Assembly (NCBI GenBank): GCA_021404905.1
Contig: QWHN01000004.1
Location: forward strand, 1-46,121
Origin: Candidatus Saccharibacteria bacterium CPR2
Lineage (GTDB): Bacteria > Patescibacteriota > Saccharimonadia > Saccharimonadales > QWHN01
Direction: 5' to 3'
Length of the DNA: 46,121 bases
Position 1 is the first letter of the stretch; every line of letters starts with the position of its first letter. Positions 1 through 30,309 of the stretch are shown piece by piece. The notes below the pieces were generated by a model. The model did not search any database. It saw nothing but the letters and a program-made list of their open reading frames with translations, and had not been told where the DNA came from. The translations under genes and the position numbers were made by a program.

Positions 1-216
1 ACTCCCTTCGTATTAGTTGATTGTTGTAACCAACAGATTACGTGGAAGCCCAGTGGCTCATCAAGGATTAGATTTTCGCGTTTTGAGTGTTAATTCAGGG
101 AGTAAAGTTTGCAAAAAACTAATAAGTATAGTATAATATCCCTGTTATATAATTTGCACTGTGGATGTTAGTACTATAGTCTGTTAAATGGGCAGTAGCT
201 TAAGAGGAATGCCTTT

Positions 217-10517: not shown

Positions 10518-10592
10518 GTGTAAACACCTCCTGTGGTGTCTTGAGCACTCCCCTTAATATTTTTGGAGTCCCAAGGGCGGATGGACTCTTGT

Positions 10593-10635: not shown

Positions 10636-10682
10636 TGATAGTTTTTATTTACATGAGGATATCAGCCTCATGTTCCTCGGTT

Positions 10683-11318: not shown

Positions 11319-11629
11319 TTTTCCTCCTCCCCTGGCTGGGGAAGTCGGTCGGCTTTCGGCCGATCTGCTAGGCGTGGTTGCCTAATCGGTTTCACCCGAC
11401 TCTTCAAACCCCTTTTGGGTCTTCAGAACAGCACGCTATTATCGAAATCTATCAATAACAAAGTGCCGTTCTGAAATGGAGAAAAAAATTGCGTTAGGTG
11501 TTGATCCCACTTCGCTCATGCGAGCTACGCGGGACTGCGTCCTATTTCACTTAAAGCAACATAGGACTAGAAGTAGTTTCATTTTTTGCGTCTTTCCGCA
11601 TGAACCTTCATGGTGATATACTTTTGTAT

Positions 11630-11947
11630 ATGAGTGCGAACCAAACTGTTACTAAAAAAGATATTGAAGAGCTAAGAGAGTTGATTATAGAAAATGCAAC
11701 TGATCTTGGAGAAAGTATAAATTCACTAGCAACCTCAGTTAGCAAGCGGTTTGACCAAGTTGATCAGCGGATTGATGAAGTTTATGGTGAGCTGAAAACA
11801 GATTTTCGCAAGCTCCAGTCGGCGGTTGACCATCTCACCGGAGAAGTTGCAGACTTTCGGATTGAAATGACTTCGTTCATGAGCCAGCTTAATCGAATGG
11901 ATGAGCAAATACACTCCTTGGCGGTGCAAACCGGGTCTTCCTTATGA
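11630..11947 (+). CDS. Small coiled-coil protein, paralogue of 15779-16243
   Basis: TVTKKDIEEL start and QLNRMDEQIHSLA.. GSSL end mirror TITKQDLKDL and QLDRLDRWVHELA..GYKL. Start set at the ATG at 11630. Confidence 0.65.
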   Translation: MSANQTVTKKDIEELRELIIENATDLGESINSLATSVSKRFDQVDQRIDEVYGELKTDFRKLQSAVDHLTGEVADFRIEMTSFMSQLNRMDEQIHSLAVQTGSSL

Positions 11948-12213
11948 ACAGCATTTATGAGGAGATATTGGCAAAGGATCCTGTGCTTGCAAAGAAAGTT
12001 GCCGAACGTCAAAAAACGTATAAAAACGTCGACGATATGATCGCTCGAGGGGTGACTATGCAAAAGAAATATCATGTTCACAAACGTTTCAGCAAAGAGA
12101 TGGACTATGCCATAGCCCGTCTCAGACGCATAAAGCACGATATCCGGAAGATTGCCAACCATACCGGGAAATCGTATCGGGAGATTGAGCGGTTGGTGAT
12201 GAAAACAGATTAG
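11944..12213 (+). CDS. Small basic hypothetical protein, possible C-terminal HTH-like segment
   Basis: 89 aa; ATGA overlap with the upstream gene; DIRKIANHTGKSYREIERL is helix-turn-helix-like. Confidence 0.5.
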   Translation: MNSIYEEILAKDPVLAKKVAERQKTYKNVDDMIARGVTMQKKYHVHKRFSKEMDYAIARLRRIKHDIRKIANHTGKSYREIERLVMKTD

Positions 12214-12772
12214 CGAGTTTTATTTCCTAAGTTGTACAGCTTCCGCAGACAGGGACTCCAAAAGCCTTGAAGATTCGTGCGGAAAGACGCTTAAATTTCT
12301 GCTCTGCTTTATTCGTCATAGCAATGAACCATAACCTAGAAGAGCAGCGTGGAATTCGCGAGTATGTTTTTGCGGCAAAATATACTCACAAACTCCAGGC
12401 TGCCCTCTATAAAACATAGAGCAGAAGACCTACAAATTTTCACTTGAGCTCAGTTTGGATTTTCTTCTTGAGAAGTGCAAAGAAGTCCCGATGTAACGTC
12501 GGGACGACTGCGCCTCACAGAGAAAAAATTCAAAATGTGTCAAGAACACCAGAAGTGTAGTTGGCTGTGCCAGCTGGCAGTCTAGTGTGGTGAAAGTTTG
12601 TAGAGAAATGAACTGTAATGATGTGGTTTGTTGTTAACGTACCCTACGTTTAATTGCGGGCTTATAGTTTGGGCTTTTAGAAATAAAAAATCCCTCAAAA
12701 CTCTCAGCAAAAAACTGAAAGCCTGTAAGGGTTTGATTGTCTAAGGGCCCAGAGCCGCTATTACTACGGGCA

Positions 12773-12802
12773 AAAGAAAAGGGCTAATTATTAGTCAGCC
12801 CC
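12773..12802 (-). terminator. Intrinsic terminator (minus strand)
   Basis: Minus strand GGGCTGA-ctaataa-TTAGCCC followed by TTTTCTTTT. Confidence 0.65.
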
Positions 12803-13113
12803 ACCTCACTCGCCGCAAAAACGATGACCCTCTATTCTTATCATTTTTTAACGCTAATGTCAATACTCAAAAAATAATCACAAGAAAAACACAAGCGTGC
12901 AAATTTAGCAAAATGCGAATTAGCATATTCGTAAATACACAGATTCAAGTGTATTTGCGAAGAAACTAATTTGTTTAAGCCAGGCGGATGAGGGTAAATG
13001 AGCAATCGTGCTCCCCTTTGACTAAACAAACTATGTATGTAAAAGCGCCGCAAGCAGGCGACTCCCAAATCAGATGCGTGTTATGGCATCAGCTCAGGAG
13101 CCGCCTGCGCGAC

Positions 13114-13836
13114 TTACTCTACTCGAAGAAGCATGAGCCGGAAGAACCGGTTGTACTTGCGGTGCCCCGCGTACGGACCAGACTCTTCCAGGTCATCTGT
13201 ACCGCAGGTGACGATCCACATGCCCTGATGAGCACGCAGCACGTCTAGTGGCACGTCATTTTTTGGCACCATACAGTTGACGTCGCCAATCGCACACTCG
13301 GCGATGACATACACCAAGCGGTGCCCCAGTTCATCAACGATGACAACTGTTTCTCCCACGGGGAGATCGTCATCAATTGTTGATCGGTTGTTGCCCAAAA
13401 CAGCGCCCAGAGTGTTGGTTACATGTCCTGCTAGTAGCGAGACAATACCGTTCCCCGGGGCGCTGAATCCGGCGTATTCGAACCAGGTGATCTTCCCCTT
13501 TGGAGGAGAAAGTATAAACTGGCCGGGTTGTTGACCTGGCACCGGAGCTTGAGGTTCCAGGGGCTCGTCAATCCCCAGAGCGGGGATTTGGATGCGCACT
13601 GGCTGCCCTATCACAATCGGCGGGGCCGTAGTGGCAGGCGCAACAGGCGCGCTGGTCGCGGTAGGCGGCGGCTGAGCAGGCATTTCAATGGACGGCTTGC
13701 TCGGTCTGTCTGAAGTCCTGTATTCAGTGCCGTCTACCCAAGGTCTTGGCCGGCTGACGATGATAATGCACGCGACCGCTCCGACGAGGAGCAGAAAATG
13801 CCACCATCGCCTTAGGAATTGAGCAGCCGCAGACAT
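13114..13836 (-). CDS. Sortase, class F-like
   Basis: N-terminal TM; PVRIQIPALGID; catalytic-type LAGHV, IVTCG and RKYNR (His/Cys/Arg). Confidence 0.85.
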   Translation of the reverse strand: MSAAAQFLRRWWHFLLLVGAVACIIIVSRPRPWVDGTEYRTSDRPSKPSIEMPAQPPPTATSAPVAPATTAPPIVIGQPVRIQIPALGIDEPLEPQAPVPGQQPGQFILSPPKGKITWFEYAGFSAPGNGIVSLLAGHVTNTLGAVLGNNRSTIDDDLPVGETVVIVDELGHRLVYVIAECAIGDVNCMVPKNDVPLDVLRAHQGMWIVTCGTDDLEESGPYAGHRKYNRFFRLMLLRVE

Positions 13837-13837
13837 A

Positions 13838-15043
13838 TTAGCTCAGCCAGTGTACTACTCTGACCGGCATGAGTCGTCTCAGCCACGATTCGCGCATGAA
13901 CGCGAATATGGCGAAGACGAGCGCTAGCATCAAGAGGACGAACCTCTCGATATTCCAGCCAGTTTCACTTGGGAGGTCTGTCTCAAAGCGGACGGATTCT
14001 CCGTTGGAAACTGGTTGCACTGTTGGTGCTGGTGTCGCAACTGGTGTCGTTGTTGGCGGAGGAGTAGGCCCTGGTGGTGACGTTGGTGGTGGCTCGGGCG
14101 GTCCCGTGGTTGGGACTGGGATGATGCCACAGTCCTTTGGACCATGAACCATTGCAGAGTCCACTGTCTCGCCGAGGTATGGATCCTCTGGGTCGACGAC
14201 GATCAGAAAGACCTCGAGGCTCTCACCCTCGCCAACCTGCACCGTGAATGGGTAGCTCGAGTTCGGCTGGGCATTGTCGACGAAAGCAACGTCATTGTTG
14301 TTTTCGTCTATGACCAAGAGGTCATGCACAGAGCCGTTGCCGGTGATGATCGTGCCCTTGACAGTACCATCCTTGCAGCTAGGCGAGAACGAACTGCCGA
14401 AATGAGCTTCGAGATTGCTTGGCGGTGGTAGAGTTGTTGTCGTAGTTGTAGTCGAGGGTGGCGTACAGATACGCTGCCCCGATCCACTGGTATTCCCGCC
14501 ACTGAAAGCTGTGAGTTGCACCCACACACTTTCACCGCACTCGAGAGCACCTGTTTCCAGAGTATATGTTGCCCCTGGGCCCAGATACAACTGAGCATGA
14601 GTCAGCCCGTTCACCGATAGGATGAATCCTTCGGTATTGGAGCTTGTGTTTGTTACCTTGATGACAACTTTAGGGTTGTTGTCATCAGCGTTGCTCACGT
14701 CGAGATCGAACGGAAAACCGCTCGACGACTCTTCTGCTGGTGCTGCTTGAGGGGCCGTCGTTGGCTCCTCTGCAACCGGTTCAGGAGGAGGTGGAACGGT
14801 AGGCACGTCTTCGGCGCCGTCGCTGTTTTCAGCTTCATCAGTTGTCTCGCTAGCTTCCTCCTCTGGGAGGGGGTCGGGTTCTACGGTTGTGGTCGTGGTG
14901 GAGTCGACCTCTGGGGTCGTCTCCACGACTTCCACGTTGTCGGGTGCAGCGGTAGTTGTTGTGCTTTCTTGAGCACTGGCTCGAACGCCCAAAAAGGCGA
15001 AGAGCAGGCTCAGCACCACGCAGACGACTCGGAATTTTCGCAC
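13838..15043 (-). CDS. Secreted Thr/Pro/Glu-rich surface protein, probable substrate of the adjacent sortase
   Basis: Signal peptide ..VRASA|QE; C-terminal LPSETG + hydrophobic helix + RR tail; stop codon 1 nt from the sortase ATG; AAGGAG RBS before the GTG. Confidence 0.8.
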   Translation of the reverse strand: MRKFRVVCVVLSLLFAFLGVRASAQESTTTTAAPDNVEVVETTPEVDSTTTTTVEPDPLPEEEASETTDEAENSDGAEDVPTVPPPPEPVAEEPTTAPQAAPAEESSSGFPFDLDVSNADDNNPKVVIKVTNTSSNTEGFILSVNGLTHAQLYLGPGATYTLETGALECGESVWVQLTAFSGGNTSGSGQRICTPPSTTTTTTTLPPPSNLEAHFGSSFSPSCKDGTVKGTIITGNGSVHDLLVIDENNNDVAFVDNAQPNSSYPFTVQVGEGESLEVFLIVVDPEDPYLGETVDSAMVHGPKDCGIIPVPTTGPPEPPPTSPPGPTPPPTTTPVATPAPTVQPVSNGESVRFETDLPSETGWNIERFVLLMLALVFAIFAFMRESWLRRLMPVRVVHWLS

Positions 15044-17113: not shown

Positions 17114-18601
17114 ATGCCAAACCCGGAATCAACACAACAAACAGAAATACTACAAGAGAAGACTATAGAGCAAGAAACAGACAATCTGAGATTTAAAAGA
17201 ATCAAAAGTTTAATAGGTAAAGTAGCTTTATCGTTGACACTGGTAACTGGCGCGGGAATCGGAGCTGTTGCAGAAGAAGTAGTTAATCCACAGCCGGCAG
17301 AAGCTACAGAATTTGTTAATGATTATCCGAATTTAAATGCAAGCCCATATAATCCATCTGCCTATGAATGGTGGGTTGACGAAAACGGCAATGGCCATCC
17401 AGATGTTAACAATGAACTTATAAGTCCACGTAATTACTATTACCGTAATTGTACTGACGGTGCTGCATATTGGACAGCTAAATATACAGGAGTTAATGTT
17501 ACGGGATGGGGTAATGCTGTAAATTGGGATAATGCTGCTACTGCTTACACTGTAAAACCTGGTAATTCAAATAGCATTGAGCCGGGAGATATTGCCCAGA
17601 GTGACGATGATGGATACTATGGTCATGTAGGTTTTGTGGCAAATGTGGCTAAAGACGCAAGCGGTAACATTACAGCTGTTAATGTTGCGGAACTAAATAA
17701 AGTGGGTACGGGAGAATATAGTTACAGCACATATACATCAAAAAATGCTTCTGGAAAATTTACTCGTGGTGGCACAAAAGACTGGGATCATTTTATAGAT
17801 GTCAATGGAGCTGGCAAAGGGCTGAATGGCGATGTCTTGGGGGGTGGCAACAATGGTGGCAGTGGCGGAAATGGCAACGGCGGAGGCAGCAACGGCATTG
17901 ACACTATAGGTGTTTATAATCCCAATATTGCTACTTTCGATTTACGCAACAGCAACACAACAGGGATTCATGACGTAACACTAGCATATGGAAATATTGG
18001 AGCTGTGGCTCTAACCGGCGACTGGAACGGAGATGGCATTGACACCATCGGTGTCTATAACCCAAGTTTGGCAACATTCGATCTGCGCAATAGTAACACA
18101 ACTGGAAACCATGATATAACTCTTGCTTATGGTAATATTGGCGCGAAACCCCTAGTCGGAGATTGGAATGGTGACGGCATAGATACGATTGGAGTGTATA
18201 ATCCAACACTCGGTACATTTGATCTCAGAAATAGTAATACAACCGGCAATCATGATATAACCCTAGCGTACGGAAACATTGGTGCCATTCCGCTTGTAGG
18301 AGATTGGAACGGGGATGGTATAGACACGATCGGCGTGTACAACCCAAGTTTAGCCACCTTTGATCTACGAAATAGCAATACCACTGGTATCCACGACATT
18401 ACTCTAGCTTATGGAAATATAGGCGCCATCCCTGTGGTCGGAGATTGGAATGGTGACGGCATAGATACTATAGGTGTATATAACCCTACACTTGGCACCT
18501 TTGATCTACGAAATAGCAATACAACAGGTAACCATGACATCACTCTTGCATACGGAAATATTGGTGCCAAGCCGATTATAGGCGACTGGAACGGACAATA
18601 A
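17114..18601 (+). CDS. CHAP-domain peptidoglycan hydrolase with five 47-aa FG-GAP-like (GDWNGDG) repeats
   Basis: CHAP motifs RNCTD, GWGNA..W and YGHVGFV; Gly/Asn linker; five GIDTIGVYNP...GDWNGD repeats. Confidence 0.88.
   Translation: MPNPESTQQTEILQEKTIEQETDNLRFKRIKSLIGKVALSLTLVTGAGIGAVAEEVVNPQPAEATEFVNDYPNLNASPYNPSAYEWWVDENGNGHPDVNNELISPRNYYYRNCTDGAAYWTAKYTGVNVTGWGNAVNWDNAATAYTVKPGNSNSIEPGDIAQSDDDGYYGHVGFVANVAKDASGNITAVNVAELNKVGTGEYSYSTYTSKNASGKFTRGGTKDWDHFIDVNGAGKGLNGDVLGGGNNGGSGGNGNGGGSNGIDTIGVYNPNIATFDLRNSNTTGIHDVTLAYGNIGAVALTGDWNGDGIDTIGVYNPSLATFDLRNSNTTGNHDITLAYGNIGAKPLVGDWNGDGIDTIGVYNPTLGTFDLRNSNTTGNHDITLAYGNIGAIPLVGDWNGDGIDTIGVYNPSLATFDLRNSNTTGIHDITLAYGNIGAIPVVGDWNGDGIDTIGVYNPTLGTFDLRNSNTTGNHDITLAYGNIGAKPIIGDWNGQ
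17894..18598 (+). repeat. Five tandem 141-bp coding repeats
   Basis: 5 x 141 bp exactly fills 17894-18598; near-identical protein, many synonymous differences. Confidence 0.9.
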
Positions 18602-18602
18602 T

Positions 18603-18750
18603 TGGCGACCCCAGGGGGAGTCCGTCGTCAGCTTCGCTTCCTTTGGGGAAATCTTCGGCGATTCTCGAAAACCTTTGGTTTTCTGCGCCGTTGCCTTGAT
18701 TATCGAACCCCTGTTTTCCCGATGCAATCGGGATGCTTAGGCCACTAGAC
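18603..18750 (-). pseudogene. Degenerate tRNA relic / distal att site, with an 82-nt insertion in the T-arm
   Basis: 18603-18619 matches 30234-30250 at 16/17; 18702-18750 matches 30251-30300 at 41/50; the 5' acceptor strand is absent. Confidence 0.75.
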
Positions 18751-18926
18751 TAATAATTAAGTACTATGGCAACAAATATCTCTATCTAGCCATTTTCTTT
18801 AATTTGGTGAACTATCAAATATCGGATTGGAACCAACTCAAGAAGGAATTGGTCTCCTGGAATACTGTACTAGATAGACCGTCAGTTAAAAAGGTGCGTG
18901 AATTAGTACTGGCGTAGACTGGAACC

Positions 18927-19823
18927 TTATATAAGAGGTTGGTTGCGAGAATAGTGGTCCGAGTTTTTTGTATAAGTAATAGCTTGAACGATGTCTAACA
19001 GACTACTGCCTTCTAGTGAAACATTAGCGTTAGGATTAAGTAGTACGTGTAAATCCCTTGATTCAGGCAGGTACTCCGTAGTCCAAAGCACTGCTGATAG
19101 GTCCTTATACTCCTCTTTCTGAAAGTAGCCAATTTCAATCTGGCTACCATTTCTGGTAGTTATCGTGCTCCTGGATGAAACGCTACTCGTTGCGGTATTC
19201 GTTGCCGAGTTTATTGTTACCTGTATAGGACCGATGCCCATTACCATTTCTTCAACAATACTCATACCAGATTTACCCATTGCACTCATATAGTTGCTTT
19301 CGGGAAGGCAAAGAGCAATTACGTATGGTGTTGCTGTGTAGTCAATCCTTGATTGGTTGGAACGCAGCCTAGTTTTGAGCTGTTCGTTCTTGGAGTTTAT
19401 AGCTGTTGTTATTCTGCGTGCAATTTCTTCGTCAGGATAGTCATACAGTCTGCCGTCTAATCTTAACTCGGGAACGTCCGTAGGTGCTGGCACTACACAT
19501 TCAGCCACGTACGAATCCGCTAATATATCTGGCTCTCCTGCACCTGGTTTTCTAACCAATTGTTCAAGTAGTAGGAATCTAAGATTTAGCTCCCAAAGTC
19601 TACTGTAAAACTTTGCCTTTTCACGAAACTCGTTGATAAAGTTTGGCTCTGAGAAACCACCGACAGCTTGCCACCTCTTGTTTATTTCGGCTCTGATATC
19701 TGGTCTGATAGCCATCCAAACAAAGTCACGTTGGTAATCTGGATTATTCTTTACGGCATCGTCAATGTCCTTTTGGGACTTTGGGTCAATGCACTCAACT
19801 GGTTCAAATAAGTCTTGCGTCAT
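18927..19823 (-). CDS. Hypothetical protein, putative PD-(D/E)xK-like nuclease fold
   Basis: EPNFINEF...FYSRLWELNL, GEPDIL..YVAECV, PYVIAL, SAVLW, LNPNA pattern. The ATG at 19823 lies 1 nt after the upstream stop. The fold is an inference. Confidence 0.5.
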   Translation of the reverse strand: MTQDLFEPVECIDPKSQKDIDDAVKNNPDYQRDFVWMAIRPDIRAEINKRWQAVGGFSEPNFINEFREKAKFYSRLWELNLRFLLLEQLVRKPGAGEPDILADSYVAECVVPAPTDVPELRLDGRLYDYPDEEIARRITTAINSKNEQLKTRLRSNQSRIDYTATPYVIALCLPESNYMSAMGKSGMSIVEEMVMGIGPIQVTINSATNTATSSVSSRSTITTRNGSQIEIGYFQKEEYKDLSAVLWTTEYLPESRDLHVLLNPNANVSLEGSSLLDIVQAITYTKNSDHYSRNQPLI

Positions 19824-19824
19824 C

Positions 19825-20418
19825 TTAACCTCTGGCAATAAAATCTATACCCGTTTTTGCACTTGTTACCCATTCAGGTTCTTTGTCCTCAAAAATACGT
19901 TTATAGAAATTGTCTATTGCTTGCTCCAGTTCATTTACGTAATTTTTAGTTGCAATTACAAAATAACCCTTGCCGTCAATGCCCATAGGTGGGCAACCTT
20001 TAATTTTTCCGTTCATCTTGGCAACTTTGGCAACTGCAACTGGCGTATAGCTAATAGTGCCGTCTCGTGCTCTACGTTTGATGCGTGGGGCATAGGCGTG
20101 TGTCGCACTATGGCGAAGGTGCTGGTACAGACCCTGTTGCTTGGTGGTTTCGTCACGAATTATCTCGTCTAGACTTCTGAACTCATCTGCTGACGGTAAT
20201 CTAAATAGACAACGATAAAACCGTCTTTCCTCGGTCTTGCCAGTTTCGCCGTTAACTTTAGGTAAGAAAGCTCCTATTACCTCTGTGTAAGTCAGACAAC
20301 CAAGTGCTGTCAGGAAGTTATTCCCAGCACTAACTGAACGCTTTAGGTCAGTAATCATCCAGCCCTTAACTCGCTCATCAAAGAATTTTTTCGCCTCTGT
20401 TAATTTCTCGTCACTCAT
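19825..20418 (-). CDS. HEPN-like protein (RxxxxH)
   Basis: Mainly helical 197 aa; NFLTALGCLTYTEVIGAF helix and YQHLRHSATHAY (R-H-S-A-T-H = RX4H). Confidence 0.6.
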   Translation of the reverse strand: MSDEKLTEAKKFFDERVKGWMITDLKRSVSAGNNFLTALGCLTYTEVIGAFLPKVNGETGKTEERRFYRCLFRLPSADEFRSLDEIIRDETTKQQGLYQHLRHSATHAYAPRIKRRARDGTISYTPVAVAKVAKMNGKIKGCPPMGIDGKGYFVIATKNYVNELEQAIDNFYKRIFEDKEPEWVTSAKTGIDFIARG

Positions 20419-20436
20419 AGGTATATTATACCACTT

Positions 20437-20682
20437 TTACCCCTGTTTTTTCTCCTTGTACATATCGTAAAGTAGTTTGGCTAGTTCCTCGGCATCTTCT
20501 TTACGTTTGTCTCTAAGCACAAGTTCGTCTAATTGTTCCTTTGTTATCGGCTGGTAAACGGTTTTCATCATCAACACCAGCTTTGACAGTTTGCTGTATG
20601 CCGTCTGGTAGTCCAGTTCTTTATTAAACTTTTGCTTGTATAGCCTTTGAAATTCAGCTACGTCTGACTTAGTTAATTCCAT
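20437..20682 (-). CDS. Small helical hypothetical protein of a type I associate with CPR integrative elements
   Basis: 81 aa, MELTKSDVAEFQRLYKQKFNKELDYQTA; GGAGG RBS upstream. Confidence 0.6.
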   Translation of the reverse strand: MELTKSDVAEFQRLYKQKFNKELDYQTAYSKLSKLVLMMKTVYQPITKEQLDELVLRDKRKEDAEELAKLLYDMYKEKKQG

Positions 20683-20836
20683 ATTTTACCTCCACCCTAA
20701 TGTTAAAACGGATACGTATTCTGTACTGCAATTTTGAGCAGTTGACTAGCACTTATTTTATGGTAAAACATTTGATTTAACAGAGGTAATTTGCTATAAT
20801 TATTTACACATACATTAACAATTTGGGGGTAAAATT

Positions 20837-21466
20837 ATGGCAAATAATGACACCAAAAGCACAGCTAAAAAGTCATCATATCGTGGTGGGTACGAGCTAA
20901 AAGTCATCGGCGATTACGAGTTTGATGAAGTCAGTTCTGCGATGCAGAAGATGATTCGCCGAAATCAGGAGTATGAAGCCTGTTGGTGGGCTTACGTGCT
21001 ACACGATAGCGGTTATTACAAATACGTCTGGCGTAGGCTGATGATAATAGCTTCGGAAGATATAGGTAATGCTAACCCGATGGCAGCCATAATGGTAAAT
21101 ACCCTCAGACAGAATTATGAAGCCACTATGGACAGTAAGACCCGATTCGGTGGCAACGGTGCATTGTTCTTATTCCAAGCCATAATGTACCTCTGCTCCT
21201 CCGAAAAGGTACGTGAAGCCGATACTCTAGCCAACTTAGTTATCAAAGAGTTCAAGGACGGTAAACGCCTAGAGATACCAGAGGTCGCCGTAGATGTACA
21301 CACTGCTAGAGGCAAGGCTATACACGGTAAGTGGGAACAAGGCACGGACAAAGAAAAATCGGAGAGAGCGAAAAAATGGTACGAGGTATGGTCAGTCGTA
21401 ACCCCAGCCTCAAAAATGCCAGACAAGTACCTAGATAAGTGGAAAGAAGTGGAGGGTCATCTATGA
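20837..21466 (+). CDS. Stand-alone MgsA/RarA C-terminal-domain-like protein (no AAA+ ATPase module)
   Basis: SAMQKMIRR..EYEACWW, G..KYVWRRLMIIASEDIGNANP match the RarA C-terminal consensus; no Walker A/B in 209 aa. Confidence 0.75.
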   Translation: MANNDTKSTAKKSSYRGGYELKVIGDYEFDEVSSAMQKMIRRNQEYEACWWAYVLHDSGYYKYVWRRLMIIASEDIGNANPMAAIMVNTLRQNYEATMDSKTRFGGNGALFLFQAIMYLCSSEKVREADTLANLVIKEFKDGKRLEIPEVAVDVHTARGKAIHGKWEQGTDKEKSERAKKWYEVWSVVTPASKMPDKYLDKWKEVEGHL

Positions 21467-22356
21467 ACAATTTAGTAGAAGTAACGATACCCAAAGACTA
21501 CACAGCCGTCTTTGATAACTTGGACGTAGCTGAAAGCACCAGAGCCGATTATTGCTACCGATTGCCGTTGTTCGTGGAGTTCGTGAACACTCACGGCTTT
21601 ACACCAAATACGTACTTAGATTATAAAAAGCATTTGCGGACAATGCCGTGGTCAGTATCAACCAAGAATAAGCATCTGATAGTTGCGAGGGTTTTTCTAA
21701 AAGAACTGCACCGCCAAGGCTTAATTCCAACCGACATCACACATAACGTGAAGTCGTTCAAACAAAGCAAGAAGCACAAGAAGCGTGGGCTAAATGACTT
21801 AGAAGCTAAGCGACTAGCTACGTGGCTATCCGAGCGTCCAGATACGCCAGAAAACGACAGGCTAAAAGCTATCTTTTGCTTACTGCTATTACAAGGCTTG
21901 CGTCTTATTGAATTGTGCAGGCTTGACGTTGAAGACATAGACTTTGAAAACGAAGTGCTATATGTGTGGGGTAAAGGACAAGACGATAAAGACCCAATAA
22001 TACTACTGCCTCAAACTGTTTCCTGCTTACGACAATATCTAAAGAGTAACGGACTAAAAGAAGGTGCATTATTCAGGAGTAACAGTCACAGTCAAATGGG
22101 TCAAAGATTATCTACTCGTGGGCTTCGTGAAATTGTAATGGTCATATTCAAAATGCTGAACATCAACAAGACAGCTCACGGTACACGGCACTTCTACACT
22201 AGTCAGTTACTTCTGATTATGCCTGGACATTTAATAGATGTAGCCCTGTACACCAGACACCGTAGCATAGAGATGTTAAGAGTTTACGATAATCGCAACA
22301 AACAGGACTACACTTTAGATAAAGTCGTATCGGCGTTTGCAGGCATTAACTTTTAA
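21463..22356 (+). CDS. Tyrosine recombinase (Xer/integrase family)
   Basis: GLRLIEL (R), GKG (K), AHGTRH (HxxR), RHRSIEMLRVY (H..Y). The ATG at 21463 overlaps the upstream TGA. Confidence 0.9.
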   Translation: MNNLVEVTIPKDYTAVFDNLDVAESTRADYCYRLPLFVEFVNTHGFTPNTYLDYKKHLRTMPWSVSTKNKHLIVARVFLKELHRQGLIPTDITHNVKSFKQSKKHKKRGLNDLEAKRLATWLSERPDTPENDRLKAIFCLLLLQGLRLIELCRLDVEDIDFENEVLYVWGKGQDDKDPIILLPQTVSCLRQYLKSNGLKEGALFRSNSHSQMGQRLSTRGLREIVMVIFKMLNINKTAHGTRHFYTSQLLLIMPGHLIDVALYTRHRSIEMLRVYDNRNKQDYTLDKVVSAFAGINF

Positions 22357-22660
22357 GCCACTACGAGCTAAAAGCCCTAACAAGCCCCTGCAATTTCCCT
22401 AACTTAGCCCTACAAAAACGCTGTTTTGAGCTAAATAGTCCAACAATTCCCTACAAATTGGTAGGCAAAATCTAGGTTTTTGACGGATTTTTGCCTATTT
22501 TTTTAGGGAAAAGGCTGGAAATAGGTAGGGTAAGCCCAGTCATTTACTGCCAATAACTATAATTACAAGCACTAAACTTACTCCCTAAAAAATATAAAAT
22601 TGGGCGATTATTGCTAGTTATGTTGTGATTGGTATATCTAAGGAGTTAGAATAGATACAT

Positions 22661-24916
22661 ATGATTTTAAGCGACAATGAAAAAAGAGATGTTATAAAGT
22701 ACCTTGAAGCAGGAAAACCATTACCCGAAAAGTATCGCTTTCTACTCTTTGAAGATGACCGTGAAGTTGAACTACTATGGAACGGCAAAACTGACGAAGT
22801 TACCACCACCGTTCTACCATTCCAAGTAATTGAACAGATTGACGAACCAAGAAGTGACGATAGGATTGGCTTACAATCAACGTTATTTGATGATACTGGT
22901 CGGCAGATAACTGGCTGGACTAATAAGCTAATTTGGGGCGATAACAAGCTTATACTTTCTTCGCTAAAAAACGGCCCTATGAGAAAAGAAATAGAAGCTC
23001 AAGGCGGTCTCAAGCTAATTTACATTGACCCCCCGTTTGACGTAGGTGCGGACTTCTCAATGGAGTTAAAAATTGGTGAGGGTGACGATGAGGAAACATT
23101 TACTAAACGACCCTCAATAATTGAAGAGGTTGCATATAGGGATACTTGGGGTAAGGGTGCTGATAGTTTCATAGCTATGATTTACGAACGTTTAAGGTTG
23201 ATGAACGAACTTCTGGCAGACGATGGCACCATCTATGTCCACTGTGATTGGCGTGTAAGTGGATATATGCGTTTAGTTCTTGATGAAATTTTCGGGAAAA
23301 ATAACTTTGTTAATGAAATTATTTGGCAAAAAGTCAGAGCTTCAAAGGGGCAAGCAAAAGCATTTGGTAATGTACACGACACCATTTTTGCTTATAGAAA
23401 AAACGACTATAACAAGTTTAATAAACAGTATGGTGAGCACGATGAAGCTCGCCTCAAAAGCCACTATAATAATTGGGAAAAAGATGGCAGACAATACCAG
23501 TTAGCAGACTTTACACAAAAAGGACAAGGTGAACCTAAAGTATTCGGAGACAAAGGACTCCTTTATCCACCAACAGGAAAACACTGGATTTGGTCGCAAG
23601 AACGAATAGACGAAGGCTTAAAAGATGGTTTGATTATCTTTACTGACTCAGGAAAGCCTAGAGTAAAAAGGTATTTGGATACCTCGCAAGGTTCACCGAT
23701 TGAAGATATTTGGAATGATATTTTCCCAATAAACTCACAGGCGAAGGAATCGGTTGATTATCCTACCCAGAAGCCAGAAACACTTTTGGAAAGAATAATT
23801 AAAACTTCTTCTGACGAGGGAGACTTAATTGCAGACTTCTTTGTCGGTTCAGGTACAACACTTGCGGTCGCAGAAAAAATGGGACGCAAGTGGATAGGGT
23901 CAGATTTAGGCAAGTTCAGTATACATACATCTAGAAAAAGAATGATAGATGTTCAAAGAAAAAAGAAGAAAGATGGTGAAGATTTTAGGGCTTTTGAGAT
24001 TCTGAACGTTGGTAGATACGAGCGTGAAAATTATGTAGATATTAACGATGACCTTAGAGCAGAAGAAAGAGCAAAACAAGCAAAACACAAAGAAAATGCG
24101 TTCGTTCAACTAATACTATCCGCATATAAAGCAGAGCCCGTTGAGTCGTTTGTAAATTTTGTTGGCAAAAAACGCGACAGACTGGTAGCAGTTGGCCCCA
24201 TTTCAACACCTGTTTCGTCAAAACAAGTTCACGACATCGTTAGCGAATGTAAAGACAAAGGCATAACCAAAGTTGATATTCTAGGCTTTGATTATGAGAT
24301 GGGTCTAGATTTTCAAGAGTATGCAGACCAAGGAGTTGATGTTGCATTCCGAATTATTCCACGAGAAGTATTTGATAAAAAAGCCGTAGAACGAGGCCAC
24401 GTGAAGTTCTATGATGTTGCGTTTATTGAGGCTATGTCAATAGTTAAAGGCCCACAAAATAAAAAGGAATTAACCATAGAACTTACGGATTTCTCTGTGT
24501 TCTATAATCAAGATGATTCTGGTGAGGTGTCAGAAACTTTAAAGCCTGGTGGTTCAAAAGTAATAGTTGAAGATGGTCAGGTAGTTAAAATAACCAAAAA
24601 TAAAGACGGTGGCGGTGAGGTCAAAGAAATTATTACTAAAAAGTGGAGCGATTGGATAGACTACTGGGCGGTTGATTTTAACTTTGCTGATAGAAAAGAA
24701 ATCATAAAGGTGCTTGAGGGCGACGAAGAAAAAGAAGTCTGGACTGGTGATTATATCTTTGATAACGAATGGCAAAGTTTTAGGACAAAGAAAAATCGTA
24801 ATCTTGAACTGACTTCTGCCGCTAGAGAAATAGTTAGAGGAAAACACAAGGTCGCAATAAAAGTAGTTGATATTTTTGGCAACGACACAACAAAAGTTAT
24901 TGAGGTAGAGGTCTAG
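22661..24916 (+). CDS. mod: Type III R-M methyltransferase (Mod)
   Basis: LIYIDPPF, YPTQKPETLLERII, DFFVGSGTT; directly upstream of a Res gene. Confidence 0.92.
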   Translation: MILSDNEKRDVIKYLEAGKPLPEKYRFLLFEDDREVELLWNGKTDEVTTTVLPFQVIEQIDEPRSDDRIGLQSTLFDDTGRQITGWTNKLIWGDNKLILSSLKNGPMRKEIEAQGGLKLIYIDPPFDVGADFSMELKIGEGDDEETFTKRPSIIEEVAYRDTWGKGADSFIAMIYERLRLMNELLADDGTIYVHCDWRVSGYMRLVLDEIFGKNNFVNEIIWQKVRASKGQAKAFGNVHDTIFAYRKNDYNKFNKQYGEHDEARLKSHYNNWEKDGRQYQLADFTQKGQGEPKVFGDKGLLYPPTGKHWIWSQERIDEGLKDGLIIFTDSGKPRVKRYLDTSQGSPIEDIWNDIFPINSQAKESVDYPTQKPETLLERIIKTSSDEGDLIADFFVGSGTTLAVAEKMGRKWIGSDLGKFSIHTSRKRMIDVQRKKKKDGEDFRAFEILNVGRYERENYVDINDDLRAEERAKQAKHKENAFVQLILSAYKAEPVESFVNFVGKKRDRLVAVGPISTPVSSKQVHDIVSECKDKGITKVDILGFDYEMGLDFQEYADQGVDVAFRIIPREVFDKKAVERGHVKFYDVAFIEAMSIVKGPQNKKELTIELTDFSVFYNQDDSGEVSETLKPGGSKVIVEDGQVVKITKNKDGGGEVKEIITKKWSDWIDYWAVDFNFADRKEIIKVLEGDEEKEVWTGDYIFDNEWQSFRTKKNRNLELTSAAREIVRGKHKVAIKVVDIFGNDTTKVIEVEV

Positions 24917-24918
24917 CT

Positions 24919-27606
24919 ATGGCTCTGCACAAGGACTTTCCTAGAGACCCATACGCAATTCTAGACCCTAGTATCAGATGGTTTCCTGCTGATGAGGACT
25001 TGCGTGATAAAGGCCACGAAAAACTTTTACCCCCTCTTGTTGCTGAACTTAGAAAAAAAGTAAAAGATTGGCGGAACGATAATTACAAAGGTGCTAGTGA
25101 AACTTCACAAGCCCTGCTTAACTGGTGGTTCAAAGAGGACCACATACTTTATAACGCAGATGGTACATCATTCAACTTCCGATACTACTTTGCACAAAGA
25201 GAGGCCTTGGAGACTGTTGTGTGGCTCTATGAGGTCGCTCAAGTAAAAGACAAGTATGATTTGATACGCTACAACTCTACAGGTGTTATAAGTGCTGGTA
25301 TGTTCCCTGAGGAATGGCTAAGGTTTGTAATAAAGATGGCCACTGGTGCAGGTAAGACCAAGGTTATGAGTCTCGTGTTAGCTTGGGCTTACTTTCACAG
25401 GCTATATGAGGACGATTCACAGCTTGCAAAGAACTTTTTACTAATAACACCCAACGTTATCGTCTTTGAAAGAATAAAGAACGATTTTGAGGGCTTAAAG
25501 ATTTTTTATCAGGACCCTATATTGCCTGAAAACGGTTATAGAGGCCAAAACTGGCAAGACGACTTCCAAGTTACCCTGCACCTACAAGATGAACTACGCA
25601 ATATATCTGATACTGGCAACATATTCTTAACAAACATTCACAGGGTGTTTGAAAGCGATGTTAGAGCACCTAGAGCTGATGACGAAGATTCAAGTGCATA
25701 TTTTCTTGGTAGCAAGCCAGTTACCAAAACCAATGATTCAACTGTTGATTTAGGAATGATTGTCAGGGATATTGACGAACTTATCGTTATAAACGACGAA
25801 GCCCACCATATCTGGGACGAGAAGATGGCTTGGGCTAAGTCTATTCAGGATATTGACAATCAGCTAAAGCAAAAAGGCTCTGGTCTTGCCCTGCAACTTG
25901 ACGTTACTGCAACACCAAAAAAGCGAGACGGTTCAATTTTTGTGCAAACAATATCTGACTACCCGCTTGTTGAAGCAATACACCAAAGAATTGTTAAAAA
26001 TCCAGTTGTGCCTGACGCTGCAAGCCGAGGCAAGCTACAAGAGAATCAGAGTTCATTGTTCAGCGAAAAGTATCGTGACTTTATAAACCTTGGTGTTGAG
26101 GAATGGAGAAAGACTTACAAGACCCTAGAGCCTATGGGCAAAAAGTCAATTCTGTTCATTATGACTGACGATACTAAGAATTGTGATGAGGTCGCTGGCT
26201 ATATCAAAGATACCTTTTCAGACTTACGAAACGCTGTGCTGACGATTCACACCAACAAAAGCGGTGATATATCCGAAACTACAAGCGGCAAGAACAAAGA
26301 CGAGCTTGAACTACTACGCAAACAAGCTAACGAAATAGATAGCTGGGAAAGCCCTTTCAAGGTCATTGTGTCGGTGATGATGCTAAAAGAAGGTTGGGAC
26401 GTAAAGAACGTTACTACCATTGTGGGACTACGTCCTTATGCTGCCGATTCAAAGATTCTACCCGAACAAACTCTAGGTCGTGGTCTAAGGCGAATGTTCT
26501 TTGGTAATGACGAAGTTGAAGAATATGTGAGCGTCATTGGTACTCCTGCGTTTATGGAGTTCGTTGAATCTATCAAGGGTGAAGGCGTGATACTTGAGAA
26601 GAAAGCTATGGGAACTGGTGCTAAACCTATTGCTCCAACAGTTATTGAAGTAGACCGAGAAAATCCAAACAAAGATATTGAAAAGTTGGACATAGAGATT
26701 CCTGTAATGACACCACGTATTGAACGTGAGTATAAGAACCTTGCAGACCTAGACGTTACGAAGTTTGACAACAAGCGTGTTGCCGTAAAAACCTTTAGTG
26801 AAGAAGAAAAGCGAGAGATTGTATTCAAGGACGTTGTTGGCGAAAGCCATCATCACACAACTGTTCTTAACGGTAACCTTACGCCGAACTACCAGAGCGT
26901 TGTTGGATTCTTTGTGCAAGCCATAATGCGAGAACTGAGGCTCTTTGGTTGTTACGATATTCTATTCGGCAAAGTGAAGGCTTTCATTGAACATCAACTG
27001 TTTGTGGAAGATATTGAGCTGACCGACTTGAATATACTTAGAAACTTATCAGAAGTTGAATACATCAAGTTGATACGAGAGACTTTCAAGAAAGCCATAA
27101 ACGAACTTACCGTACAGGATAGTGGTGACACCGAAATAAAGAACTACATTAAGATTAGCGAATCACGACCCTTCGTGGTAAACGACAAAGGATTCTTACT
27201 TCCCAAGAAATCAGTGTTTAATAAAATTGTCGGTGACGGTGGTTTTGAGCTTGAGTTCTCTGGATTTCTGGAAAGTTGCGACGATATAATTTCGTTTTCA
27301 AAGAACTTCCAGAACAAGGAAGCCAATGCCCTTAGGATTGAGTACAAGAACTCGGAAGGCTTCATAGCTTATTACTACCCCGATTTCTTTGTAAAGACTA
27401 CACCTAAGACTGTTTACATAGTAGAGACAAAAGGTCGCGAAGAAGAAGATGACAAACTTAAGTTTGAGCGGCTTGAGAAATGGTGTGATGACGTTAATAA
27501 CAGACAAAGCAAAATGTCCTACAAAGCAATTTACGTTAAGCAGTCTGAGTGGAACAAAGACAAGTTGAAGAACTTTGATGAAGTAGTTCGTGTATTTGGG
27601 GATTAG
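24919..27606 (+). CDS. res: Type III R-M restriction subunit (Res; SF2 helicase + PD-(D/E)xK)
   Basis: YFAQREA, KMATGAGKT, NDEAHH, TATP, LKEGWDV, EQTLGRGLR; C-terminal YYPDF..IVETKG. Confidence 0.92.
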   Translation: MALHKDFPRDPYAILDPSIRWFPADEDLRDKGHEKLLPPLVAELRKKVKDWRNDNYKGASETSQALLNWWFKEDHILYNADGTSFNFRYYFAQREALETVVWLYEVAQVKDKYDLIRYNSTGVISAGMFPEEWLRFVIKMATGAGKTKVMSLVLAWAYFHRLYEDDSQLAKNFLLITPNVIVFERIKNDFEGLKIFYQDPILPENGYRGQNWQDDFQVTLHLQDELRNISDTGNIFLTNIHRVFESDVRAPRADDEDSSAYFLGSKPVTKTNDSTVDLGMIVRDIDELIVINDEAHHIWDEKMAWAKSIQDIDNQLKQKGSGLALQLDVTATPKKRDGSIFVQTISDYPLVEAIHQRIVKNPVVPDAASRGKLQENQSSLFSEKYRDFINLGVEEWRKTYKTLEPMGKKSILFIMTDDTKNCDEVAGYIKDTFSDLRNAVLTIHTNKSGDISETTSGKNKDELELLRKQANEIDSWESPFKVIVSVMMLKEGWDVKNVTTIVGLRPYAADSKILPEQTLGRGLRRMFFGNDEVEEYVSVIGTPAFMEFVESIKGEGVILEKKAMGTGAKPIAPTVIEVDRENPNKDIEKLDIEIPVMTPRIEREYKNLADLDVTKFDNKRVAVKTFSEEEKREIVFKDVVGESHHHTTVLNGNLTPNYQSVVGFFVQAIMRELRLFGCYDILFGKVKAFIEHQLFVEDIELTDLNILRNLSEVEYIKLIRETFKKAINELTVQDSGDTEIKNYIKISESRPFVVNDKGFLLPKKSVFNKIVGDGGFELEFSGFLESCDDIISFSKNFQNKEANALRIEYKNSEGFIAYYYPDFFVKTTPKTVYIVETKGREEEDDKLKFERLEKWCDDVNNRQSKMSYKAIYVKQSEWNKDKLKNFDEVVRVFGD

Positions 27607-27612
27607 GTTGAT

Positions 27613-28347
27613 ATGTCGCTCTCACCGGAAGATAAGTATCATCTGGATAAGTGGTGGCTACTGCAAGAGTTAAAAGCTGAATATCTAGTATCGGACTCTT
27701 ACGAGCTGAGTACCGTATTCCATCTAAGAGAAAATAACGCACCAACTAAGCTAGTTCAGGAGAGATTATTAAAGCAGCTAGCTTCTAAAGAAGCATTTGA
27801 GCTAGAGAAGATTGACGACAATTCGTACAAGGTTGTGTTTTTGCATAACTTCACAAAAGCATATAACGCTACGGACCTTTGGTTTAGAGACTTCTATGCG
27901 ACAACGGGCATAAAACCAGAATATGAAACAATTCCTACCGCAAAGCCAGAGTTAATTACCGTTAGGCTATCAAAAGAAGGCAGAGGGCTGTGGTTAGTTG
28001 CTGGTGAAGATGACCAAGTATTACTAAATAGATTCGCGTCTAATAGGCCACCTGACTTGATATTTGGCTATTTAATAAACAATAGGCCTGGTTCATTAGT
28101 TAGATTGGGCGAACTTAAAAGAGAATTTGAGAATGTGGGGAAAGTTAGTAATTTAGAGGACCTGGTGCGTAAGGTTGGGTTTGATAAAGAACTTAAAAAA
28201 CTATTCTTCAAACGCTCTGGAGCCAAAGAATTAGAGCTAACAAATCCAATTCAAATTACTGGTTCTGAGTGGCAAGAAATAAAGCAAAAATTGGAAACGT
28301 CAAGAACCGGCAAAAAACCGGCAAGTTCAAACTCTAGCAAACTGTAG
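27613..28347 (+). CDS. Hypothetical protein (possible C-terminal winged helix)
   Basis: 244-aa ORF 6 nt after res; no clear motif. Confidence 0.5.
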   Translation: MSLSPEDKYHLDKWWLLQELKAEYLVSDSYELSTVFHLRENNAPTKLVQERLLKQLASKEAFELEKIDDNSYKVVFLHNFTKAYNATDLWFRDFYATTGIKPEYETIPTAKPELITVRLSKEGRGLWLVAGEDDQVLLNRFASNRPPDLIFGYLINNRPGSLVRLGELKREFENVGKVSNLEDLVRKVGFDKELKKLFFKRSGAKELELTNPIQITGSEWQEIKQKLETSRTGKKPASSNSSKL

Positions 28348-28421
28348 CAAAATTCAATTCTCAAAAATCATTCCGGCGTTGCCTGAAAGCATTTTTTGTA
28401 ACCCCTATACTTCCGCTTGCA

Positions 28422-28598
28422 ATGAACAGCAAGCAGGACAAAATCATAACAACTAGCGAAATGCGAAAGCTACTTGGAAAGGAGTATGCCAGCATTTCAG
28501 ACAGTGAGGTTGACACTGTCATAGTTCAGCTTGAGTTGATGGCAGAAATAGCAATTAAACGCATCAAGAAAGACCTCGTGGTTCCAAAGTCTACGTAG
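28422..28598 (+). CDS. 58-aa protein upstream of the serine recombinase (missing from the ORF track)
   Basis: MNSKQDKIITTSEMRKLLGKEYASISDSEVDTVIVQLELMAEIAIKRIKKDLVVPKST*, ATG 28422 to TAG 28598. Confidence 0.55.
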   Translation: MNSKQDKIITTSEMRKLLGKEYASISDSEVDTVIVQLELMAEIAIKRIKKDLVVPKST

Positions 28599-28642
28599 GT
28601 TACTTGTATGCAGTTTTTAATAGAACATAATAGGGGTTACAA

Positions 28643-30274
28643 ATGAAAGTCGTAATTTACACAAGGGTCTCTACGGTTGAGCAGGCTGAAAAGAATAAGA
28701 GCCTAGAGGTCCAGGAAAAAGCCTGCCGTGACTATGTCGCAAGACATAACTTAGGTGATGTTGTTGAGGTTTACAAAGAAGAAGGAGAAAGTGCCAAGAC
28801 AGCTAATCGTACTCAATTAAAAAGAATGTTAAGGGAGTTGGCTAGCGACCATAAAGAAGTCAGGCATTTGATAGTCTTTAAGTTGGATAGGCTGGCAAGA
28901 CGAACAGAGGACCACATAGCATTAGCAAACATACTTGTTAAGCTGGGAGTTAAACTACACTCCGCTACAGAAGTCCTTGAGGACACACCGTCAGGTAAGT
29001 TAATGGAGCATATACTTGCATCGTTTGCTGAGTTTGATAATTCAGTACGTTCTGAGCGTTCAGCCAAAGGAATGATGGCTAGATTACAAGAAGGTGGCTG
29101 GGTACACTTAGCACCGATTGGCTACAGAAATATCAAGGACTCACTAGGTCGTCCTACTGTAGAGCCTGATGAAATGGCTAAACCAGTACAAAAATTCCTT
29201 AAAGACTTTGCAAAAGGATTATACAACCAAGACAACGCTGCTGAGTTAGCAGCAACAAAGTACAAAATAAAGGCCAGAAGCTACAGTATAGTCAACGGTA
29301 AACGTAAGTACAGTAAAAACTACGATAAACCTGTTGGGAAAAGCACGGTCTACTCTATGCTTAGAAATCCTTTGTATGCAGGATACGTAACCGGCAAAGG
29401 TATTGACGAACCAATCAAGGGTCTGCATATGCACAATGCTCTGATAACAAAAGATGAGTTTGATGCAATTCAGATGATATTAACTGGTACCGATAAGCCA
29501 GTGTTGCGACCCTATGGGGTTAATAAAGAATACTGGCCATTACGTAGGTACTTACGTTGTGCTTACTGCAATAGCCATCTTACAGGTAGCAGGTCTAAAG
29601 GTAGAAATGATACTTATGAGTACTACCACTGCACAAGGTGCAAGGGTGTAAAAGTTAAAGGCGAGACATATAAGCACCTTACCTTGCCTCGTCAGACTGT
29701 ACACGATGCTTATCTGAGACTTATGGAGGGCGTTCAGCCCTCCGTAGGTGCCTTGCGAGCCTTCAAAGAGATTGTTGTGCGTAAATGGAATGCTGATTAT
29801 GCTGCTACCATTGCAAGACGTGGCAGTGTTGAGGCTGACATTTCTGCACTGGACAAGAAAAAGTCTGACTTAATTGAGATGTGTCGTGTTAGTACGATAA
29901 CTGAGGACGAGCTAAAGAACGAGAGAGACAAGATTGCCATTGACCGCTCCAGACTTGAACTAGAGCTCTTAGAAATCAAACAAGAGTTTATTGACACTGA
30001 CCGTGTACTAAATTTGGCTATAGATTTTATGGCAAACGTTGCCAGTATGTGGTCTACAGCACAGGACGACGACAGAGTACGGTTCCAATATATGGCTTTA
30101 CCTGAGGGTGTGACGATAAACGCAAACAAAAAATTTGGAACCGTCAAAATTGGTCTGCCATTTAAGCAAGCTAAAGTGTTAGAAGCCAAGTTATCTGCAT
30201 CAAAAAAGACCCAAAGTAACTCTGAGTCTTTTATGGTGACCCCAGGGGGAATCGAACCCCCGTTTTCAGGATGA
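28643..30274 (+). CDS. Large serine recombinase (integrase)
   Basis: YTRVST (catalytic Ser), KLDRLAR, recombinase domain APIGY, Zn ribbon CAYC...YYHCTRC, coiled coil; the last 13 codons are antisense to the tRNA. Confidence 0.93.
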   Translation: MKVVIYTRVSTVEQAEKNKSLEVQEKACRDYVARHNLGDVVEVYKEEGESAKTANRTQLKRMLRELASDHKEVRHLIVFKLDRLARRTEDHIALANILVKLGVKLHSATEVLEDTPSGKLMEHILASFAEFDNSVRSERSAKGMMARLQEGGWVHLAPIGYRNIKDSLGRPTVEPDEMAKPVQKFLKDFAKGLYNQDNAAELAATKYKIKARSYSIVNGKRKYSKNYDKPVGKSTVYSMLRNPLYAGYVTGKGIDEPIKGLHMHNALITKDEFDAIQMILTGTDKPVLRPYGVNKEYWPLRRYLRCAYCNSHLTGSRSKGRNDTYEYYHCTRCKGVKVKGETYKHLTLPRQTVHDAYLRLMEGVQPSVGALRAFKEIVVRKWNADYAATIARRGSVEADISALDKKKSDLIEMCRVSTITEDELKNERDKIAIDRSRLELELLEIKQEFIDTDRVLNLAIDFMANVASMWSTAQDDDRVRFQYMALPEGVTINANKKFGTVKIGLPFKQAKVLEAKLSASKKTQSNSESFMVTPGGIEPPFSG

Positions 30275-30309
30275 AAACCTGATGTCCTAGGCCACTAGAC
30301 GATGGGGCC
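30234..30309 (-). tRNA. tRNA-Glu (TTC)
   Basis: GGCCCCATCGTCTAGTGGCCTAGGACATCAGGTTTTCATCCTGAAAACGGGGGTTCGATTCCCCCTGGGGTCACCA: 76 nt, cloverleaf, encoded CCA. Confidence 0.97.

Follow-up and report, generated by a model that had tools for sequence, protein, structure and literature searches.

The island found in the window (the whole stretch of 46,121 nucleotides analysed here, which is one complete contig out of the nine that make up a genome of 829 kb) is very probably a member of a family of tRNA-targeting elements that have attP inside their own integrase gene, the circle encoding a long form of the enzyme and the integrated copy a short one. Because the recombination site lies within the integrase gene, a conserved tail of 35 residues would be joined to the enzyme on the free circle only. 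This family is common in this order of small-genome bacteria. The original prediction, made from the sequence of the window, had proposed that the integrase has one C-terminus when integrated and another when excised, attP being placed inside its gene. That principle stands, and the arrangement is conserved, but both the site and the tail put forward were wrong.

Integrase gene and its junction with tRNA-Glu

The large serine integrase gene occupies positions 28643 to 30274 of the plus strand and in its integrated, short form encodes a protein of 543 amino acids. Its resolvase-type catalytic domain was identified by Pfam (Resolvase PF00239, E=2e-33, residues 3-153) and includes the YTRVST motif at residues 6-11; in addition, the N-terminal domain gave sequence matches in the PDB with 3guv and with the TP901-1 integrase, 3bvp. 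The recombinase domain (PF07508, E=4e-7) and a Cys4 zinc ribbon with an embedded coiled coil are also present, and the four cysteines are invariant across an alignment of 17 integrase sequences. The open reading frame has no stop codon of its own. After its C-terminal end, ...SESFMVTPGGIEPPFSG, it terminates 41 nt into the antisense of tRNA-Glu(UUC) (30234-30309, minus strand), which is the integration target (attB) and is intact after integration. Anticodon bases 35-36 plus A37, read in antisense, make up the stop codon TGA. The element itself contributes residues 1-532, and the last 11, TPGGIEPPFSG, which together with the stop TGA occupy 30239-30274 of the plus strand, are the antisense of the tRNA from its acceptor end to the anticodon loop. 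A serine recombinase reading into an antisense tRNA and stopping there had been described in the original prediction, and this was confirmed.

The same was observed in relatives. The integrase stops inside an antisense tRNA (Met, Glu or Arg) in 24 of the 30 best relative loci. The other six of these best loci comprise one that reads right through its tRNA, one in which a tail of tRNA-Glu type stands at the beginning of a contig, three with contiguous forms belonging to tandem arrays or remnants, and one unscorable locus at a contig edge. This read-through into tRNA is far above chance, and integrase homologues in relatives also read through into tRNAs Glu, Met, Leu, Trp and Asp. For annotation this means that integrase stops inside tRNA genes are real. 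The tails of the integrated forms, of 11-12 residues dictated by the tRNA, are plainly without conservation at the protein level, being set by the tRNA and unselected. At tRNA-Glu(CUC), where no in-frame TGA arises, a relative has a junk tail of 56 residues.

The integrated island measures 11,429 bp from core to core (18811-30239). Its cargo consists of three unnamed minus-strand genes, an MgsA_C protein with a tyrosine recombinase, the Mod and Res proteins of a type III restriction-modification system, a 244-aa protein and the serine integrase; it is thus a defence island of 11.4 kb located at the last bases of the tRNA-Glu gene. The integrase-proximal core, TGGTGA (30234-30239), is the antisense of the tRNA 3' end TCACCA. 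The distal core, also TGGTGA (18805-18810), is found at the far junction of the island and corresponds to the displaced last bases of the original tRNA end. The adjoining segment 18751-18804 would be the original trailer of tRNA-Glu, that is, host DNA now parted from its tRNA by the island.

In this family the crossover falls in the terminal 6-8 nt of the tRNA, a stretch made up of CCA, the discriminator and the first acceptor bases. That of the window's island was bracketed to the 6-nt core and would have taken place within its proximal copy, 30234-30239; the shortness of this core, only 6 nt, counts against the explanation that we prefer. An integrase with 95% identity was found in another assembly; its DNA shows no difference as far as TGGTGACC, beyond which come another tRNA-Glu and other flanks. 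Another integrase, with 81% identity and the same cargo, lies at tRNA-Glu(CUC) in another genome. The presence of such closely related integrases at other tRNA-Glu genes indicates that the island is mobile between hosts and that the integrated tail is unselected. The predicted attP junction of the window's island would be GAGTCTTTTATGGTGAACTATCAAATATCGGATTGGAAC and its predicted empty site CATTTTCTTTAATTTGGTGACCCCAGGGGGAATCG. Neither the circle nor the empty site of this island was detected among the four public contigs with the same pyruvate kinase, all of which are integrated, a result that also counts against the preferred explanation, and no public record was found for the protein at the left flank of the island.

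Detached integrase tail and free circles of relatives

At the far junction, the plus strand carries the detached 3' end of the integrase gene (18810-18917), which is in frame through the core and comprises 35 codons, NYQISDWNQLKKELVSWNTVLDRPSVKKVRELVLA, followed by the stop TAG (18915-18917) ten bases from the end of a convergent gene. It has the same orientation and frame as the integrase, whose integrated 3' end is different, and it includes the family motif WNx(I/L)xxELx(R/S)W. Joining the integrase to this tail at the core yields a protein of 567 amino acids. When the 23,299 six-frame ORFs of the genome were searched with a tail profile built from 18 other tails, leaving out the window's copy, the only match was the window's frame, with E=0.009 against 1.5 for the next best. 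The motif of the window has Ser where relatives have Arg, and this point was counted against the preferred explanation.

In the 20 kb examined on the element side, relatives have a copy of only the last 6-12 nt of the tRNA and, directly after it, a short frame that shares the strand of the integrase and lies 4-11 kb upstream of it; a tail at this distance and on this strand is present in at least 12 genomes. The frame encodes V-x6-W-N-x-I-x-x-E-L-x-R-W-x-x-L-L and then 12-18 variable residues before the stop. The 15 far-end copies, belonging to 12 elements, all continue the integrase frame and all keep the V-x6-W spacing, with tails of 29-62 codons (mostly 32-37) and cores of 6-18 nt. The profile of the integrase end plus the tail was matched by 211 of the 401 genomes of the order.

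Free forms were searched for with the last 62 residues of a rebuilt relative of tRNA-fMet type, by means of a word-based protein search, and four proteins of 548-552 aa with an uninterrupted tail were obtained; the same kind of search with the window's rebuilt protein returned integrated forms only. One of the four, P0007 (550 aa, uninterrupted with its tail), is encoded by contigs of 8,462 nt from three sequencing runs, each with a terminal overlap of 30 nt, and after trimming these contigs are exact rotations of one circle of 8,432 bp. P0005 is encoded by a 6,325-nt contig of one assembly with a 127-nt terminal overlap, giving a circle of 6,198 bp. The attP of the P0007 and P0005 circles, ...AAGTCTTTCTTGGTAGC directly followed by CCAAGTACATTCGAATTGGAAC, is the same as that rebuilt from integrated copies. 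Both have the core 33 codons before the stop, so the core of these relatives is inside the open reading frame in the free form, and no tRNA-like element occurs in the relatives' circles between integrase, core and tail. The core of the window's island would likewise lie inside the frame of its free form, as reconstructed from the two ends. The original prediction that the excised circle encodes a longer integrase therefore holds in its general form, with 567 aa by reconstruction and a long form in the circles of relatives, although the tail is a different one. Two other kinds of candidate were discarded: an uninterrupted 573-aa integrase in G311, considered as a circle, was the junction of a tandem array with a second integrase and tRNA-Glu 8 kb downstream, and two uninterrupted frames of 120 aa were remnants.

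The constancy of the frame bears on whether 18810-18917 could be an independent small gene of the island, for instance one encoding an accessory factor. Such a gene could in principle be translated, since the core always offers a TTG, ATG or GTG codon at the start of the frame. However, by-eye reading of the window revealed no ribosome-binding site upstream, the frame is fused to the integrase in every free circle and in the tandem junction, and the frame relation to the integrase is kept in 15 of 15 copies, all of which make an independent gene extremely improbable.

An AlphaFold2 model of P0007, the circle-encoded relative, was obtained from an alignment of 17 sequences (mean pLDDT 76). The model contains the catalytic domain, the recombinase domain and the zinc ribbon with a long coiled coil made of two long antiparallel helices (358-405 and 411-452). 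A disordered linker (497-526) follows and leads to a helix, 523-536, which corresponds to the tail motif. In the proposed long form, an amphipathic helix that is conserved, WNxIxxELxRW, comes after a flexible linker. The pLDDT of the modelled helix is about 46-55 and it has no confident docking, which was also counted against the preferred explanation.

Protein-level constraint on the tail was apparent in the detached copies. The motif shows a pN/pS of 0.41, and its Leu and Arg residues are kept through different codon families (TTG, CTG, CTT and TTA for Leu; CGN and AGR for Arg). Moreover, 15 of 15 copies have no fewer than 29 open codons in this frame, with the stop falling in a narrow range thereafter, and conservation extends to +51 and beyond, outside the 25 bp of a serine integrase half-site (PMC3783163). 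These data speak against a neutral layout in which a compact element simply has its attP overlapping the integrase 3' end, the enzyme can do without the tail, and the tail is conserved through constraints on the DNA of the P' half-site. We regard this explanation as unlikely, even if several observations fit it: the TGGAAC sequence is invariant also at the synonymous position of Asn (AAC in 15 of 15 copies, within TGG AAC), the six codons adjoining the core have a low pS with a pN/pS of 1.15, the model of the tail is of low confidence, and the integrated tails are unselected, with 11-12 aa or 56 aa depending on the tRNA. On the evidence of these sequences, the tail is both a protein under selection and a DNA site.

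In an alignment of the att sites on the terminal base of the tRNA, the sequence of P' is TGGT.gCCCaagTAcA.tCG.ATTGGAACC and that of the tRNA side (B') is TGGT.gC.......GGAcTCGAACC. In 12 of 12 elements the nine-base sequence A(T/C)T(G/C)GAACC occurs in P' as ATTGGAACC at +22..30 and in B' as ACTCGAACC at +17..25, the invariant TGGAAC being 5 bp further out than the TCGAAC of the tRNA T loop. In serine integrases the motif of the zinc-ribbon domain is shifted 5 bp outward in attP with respect to attB (PMC3783163), and the P'/B' side displays this same displacement from the centre. From this rule the crossover is placed at about +4..+7, inside the core. No clear motif shifted by 5 bp was seen on the P/B side, and the dyad symmetry between the P and P' arms is weak. 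The motif on the tRNA side coincides with the universal T loop, which would explain the moves of the family between tRNAs.

The 17-nt repeat outside the island

The original prediction had relied on a second copy of the tRNA tail, and this copy does exist: 18603-18622 (TGGCGACCCCAGGGGGAGTC) and 30234-30253 (TGGTGACCCCAGGGGGAATC) are identical at 18 of 20 positions. Repeats running from the T loop to the CCA end are the usual signature of tRNA-targeting islands. In the version proposed, 17-nt repeats (18603-18623 and 30234-30252) bound the island, the crossover falls in the T loop, the circle junction is GGGGGA followed by GTCCGTCG, and the circle encodes an Arg-rich tail of 42 aa. The frame joined after GGGGGA to position 18624 onward is indeed open for 42 codons as written; the chance of such an open frame is about 0.13 ((61/64)^42). 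Real as the repeat and the open frame are, that version is very improbable in view of the following results.

The repeat was found to belong to a separate small tRNA-like element (18603-18750, minus strand) outside the island, and not to be the att site of the latter. It is composed, on the minus strand, of a tRNA-like body (18700-18750) corresponding to tRNA positions about 8-59 with an altered anticodon arm, an insert of 76 nt (18624-18699) and the tRNA-tail copy (18603-18623) that had been taken for the other att copy. The 5' acceptor strand is absent. An Rfam scan of 18300-19100 gave no relevant match for the tRNA-like piece. The 42-codon frame runs through this element. Similar units are associated with six other tRNAs of the genome (Lys-CUU, Lys-UUU, Met, Arg-GCG, Thr-UGU and Asp), the last 16 nt of which are recopied 125-322 nt downstream, in each case with a T-arm-like piece and some 75 nt of insert ahead of the copy. 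No island is located between the tRNA and the tail copy at any of these six tRNAs, which indicates that the 17-nt repeat is systematic but is part of a different element. Behind tRNA-Ile there is a seventh tail copy; it is a simple duplication of the 3' half, and the insert is absent.

The position of the crossover also disagreed with the 17-bp repeat. It is placed outside the repeat, within the last 6-8 tRNA nucleotides, by the core that both ends share, by the DNA of the 95%-identical integrase, in which divergence begins at +9 of the tRNA instead of beyond the T loop, and by the contiguity of integrase, core and conserved tail on the free circles of relatives. In addition, the frame inside the corresponding T-loop-type repeat of relatives stops after about 7-16 codons, and a DNA motif shared there is read in different frames according to by-eye inspection of the sequences. 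Both observations indicate that the 42-aa Arg-rich tail, although its frame is open, is not a real isoform. The 'excised' tails that had been rebuilt at the T loop in relatives, of 7-42 aa and unconserved, were abandoned in favour of the short core and the conserved tail. Regarding annotation, the ends of islands at such tRNAs are the CCA end, and longer tRNA-tail repeats nearby may be those of other elements.

Proposed mechanism and comparison with known systems

According to the explanation that we prefer, an integrase gene that contains its own attP, recombination would take place in about six terminal bases of the tRNA gene (TCACCA in tRNA sense). The free circle would encode the long integrase, with 567 aa predicted, and integration would leave the final 35 codons of that gene at the opposite end of the island (18810-18917). 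The form encoded in the chromosome would then have 543 aa, its last 11 residues being an arbitrary translation of the tRNA antisense, and in this way integration would swap a conserved C-terminal helix for 11 tRNA-derived residues. The helix would matter for the enzyme made by the circle, that is, for the integration step, and by analogy with phage Mx8 its loss may change the activity, the directionality or the stability of the chromosomal form. A further idea, which we hold to be doubtful, is that the exchange of tails acts as a state switch: the long form would integrate, the coiled-coil control of the short form would differ, and excision or its block would require no directionality factor or a different one. 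If this were true, the DNA substrate would set the directionality of its own recombinase.

Serine integrases are valued tools for genome engineering, since they work strictly in one direction and need a separate directionality factor to be reversed. A family in which integration alters the C-terminus of the enzyme offers a direct route for asking whether the tail has a part in directionality or stability. Experimental characterisation of the layout exists for one tyrosine integrase only, that of Mx8, and for a serine recombinase it has been noted in passing (DsiB, 2011). Here it proves to be widespread in an order of bacteria with very small genomes, with a conserved detached helix and free circles. 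A literature search of incomplete coverage found no description of this tRNA-targeting family, of the conserved tail or of the circles.

The DsiB recombinases of the ssrA islands of Dehalococcoides are a case in which the 3' end of dsiB always overlaps attL, and it was suggested that DsiB may be fully functional only from the circle or from an adjoining island (McMurdie et al., 2011, PMC3146451). At the level of layout, both systems have a serine recombinase gene overlapping att and both form tandem arrays, but the target there is the tmRNA gene instead of tRNAs, and the host phylum is different. The overlapping part was called divergent in that work, which identified no conserved detached tail, att geometry or circles (PMC3146451).

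The canonical serine integrases of A118/LI, TP901-1, phiC31 and Bxb1 share with the island enzyme the catalytic domain, the recombinase domain and the zinc ribbon with embedded coiled coil, and also the outer motif shifted 5 bp in attP relative to attB. To our knowledge, attP is outside the gene in all four. A tblastn comparison with 539 phage records yielded distant integrases only (25-28% identity, TP901-1 included), and the tail was not found in these records, with no match past residue 520 of the rebuilt protein.

Broussard and colleagues reportedly described in 2013 mycobacteriophages with attP in the 3' end of the repressor gene, where integration swaps off an ssrA-like degradation tag. 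The likeness consists in an attP at the 3' end of a gene and a C-terminus altered by integration, but the gene is that of the repressor there and that of the integrase here. The degradation-tag analogy drawn in the original prediction does not extend to the island: it is the integrase gene that is concerned, and no C-terminal tag is common to the restored tails, their ends being VLA, RRT, AVR, TGS, STP, SWD, QGF, LQY, AHY, AAD and others.

The integrase of the island is like that of Mx8 in layout, with attP inside the integrase gene and a new 3' end upon integration, and it is outside the Mx8 Int protein family. The Mx8 target is likewise the end of a tRNA gene. Passages of PMC6070905 that deal with Mx8 place attP in the integrase coding sequence and relate that integration converts intP into intX, with a new 3' end, and that the altered integrase remains active with changed properties (Tojo, 1996; Magrini, 1999; in PMC6070905). 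Mx8 Int is a tyrosine recombinase, whereas the island's enzyme is a serine recombinase with other chemistry and directionality logic, and it matches PF00239 and PF07508, not PF00589.

Finally, the SSV-type 'suicidal' tyrosine integrases also have attP in the open reading frame, tRNA targets, a translated att site and hybrids in tandem copies (PMC7253208), features that all have their counterpart here. [quoted passage not shown] In contrast, 532 of the 567 residues of the island's integrase, including all recognisable domains, are kept in one piece, the relatives conserve frames of more than 500 aa, and the tail alone is exchanged.

Free circles, and elements accreted in tandem at the same tRNA

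The long integrase, that is, the uninterrupted form carrying its own 3' tail, was found to be encoded on free circular elements of 8,432 and 6,198 bp (loci L085-L087, Logan ERR14787029/31/33, and L088, ENA ERZ15185090). The larger circle also contains a gene faintly resembling FtsK/SpoIIIE (DUF87), together with one encoding a DUF3761 protein, and it may be a small transferable element. At L085, ARAGORN called a 92-nt putative tRNA-Trp (345-436).

Elements accreted in tandem at the same tRNA were identified in three relatives, at loci L078 (G297:C2), L026 (G013:C15) and L082 (G311:C24). The tRNA-fMet of L078 is accompanied by three consecutive detached tails and the tRNA-Glu of L026 by two; L082 holds a hybrid 573-aa gene in which a full integrase is fused in frame with the tail of the next element.

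Island cargo and further recombinases

In another genome (L072 and L073; NCBI GCA_013694995.1 and GCA_020063845.1), a cargo set identical in kind to that of the window island was present, comprising an MgsA_C protein, a tyrosine recombinase, type III Mod and Res, small proteins and a serine integrase with 81% identity to that of the window. This island is located at tRNA-Glu(CUC), adjoining a two-component system, and both assemblies break within it. In the window, at 20837-22356, the tyrosine recombinase of the island (PF00589) immediately follows an MgsA_C-only protein and may act on other repeats, for instance the tail copies of T-loop type.

Serine recombinases were also noted on contig C5 of the window's genome. 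A second one (156834-158387; 517 aa), a distant relative of the island integrase, likewise stops within an antisense tRNA, in this case tRNA-Asn, with the tail ...WLPGPDSNRQPRS. A third (120585-122204; 539 aa) has a C-terminal tail of its own (...KKDPQNGGQFLQSNQDLFSWLRKMMASDS), and the sequence inspected directly 3' of it holds no tRNA.

Small units behind tRNAs and flanking repeats

Two stretches at 9000-15000 of the window showed a G+C content of 0.51-0.62, versus about 0.40 in the remaining contig. Five 141-nt (47-aa) tandem repeats (17892-18596) are located at the 3' end of the gene at 17114-18601; these repeats probably break assemblies, because one publicly available contig from this organism begins within them. 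The stop of this gene lies one base ahead of the tRNA-tail copy at 18603.

Small units were also located behind tRNAs, in the window (18603-18750) and elsewhere in its genome: on C5 at tRNA-Lys(CUU) (5496-5572), tRNA-Lys(UUU) (50052-50128), tRNA-Met (72830-72904), tRNA-Arg(GCG) (248743-248819) and tRNA-Asp (313750-313827), the last with a tandem pair, and on contig C8 at tRNA-Thr(UGU) (108095-108170). Each contains a hairpin resembling a terminator, a 5' piece that is T-arm-like and matches the tRNA concerned, an insert (about 75 nt) in which the motifs GCGCAGAA... and CGAGCA are common to the units, and a tail copy exactly matching the last 16-21 nt of its tRNA. Scanning window positions 18300-19100 against Rfam gave no match for the unit. 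At locus L029, from a different family within the order, a unit of this type is conserved behind tRNA-fMet.
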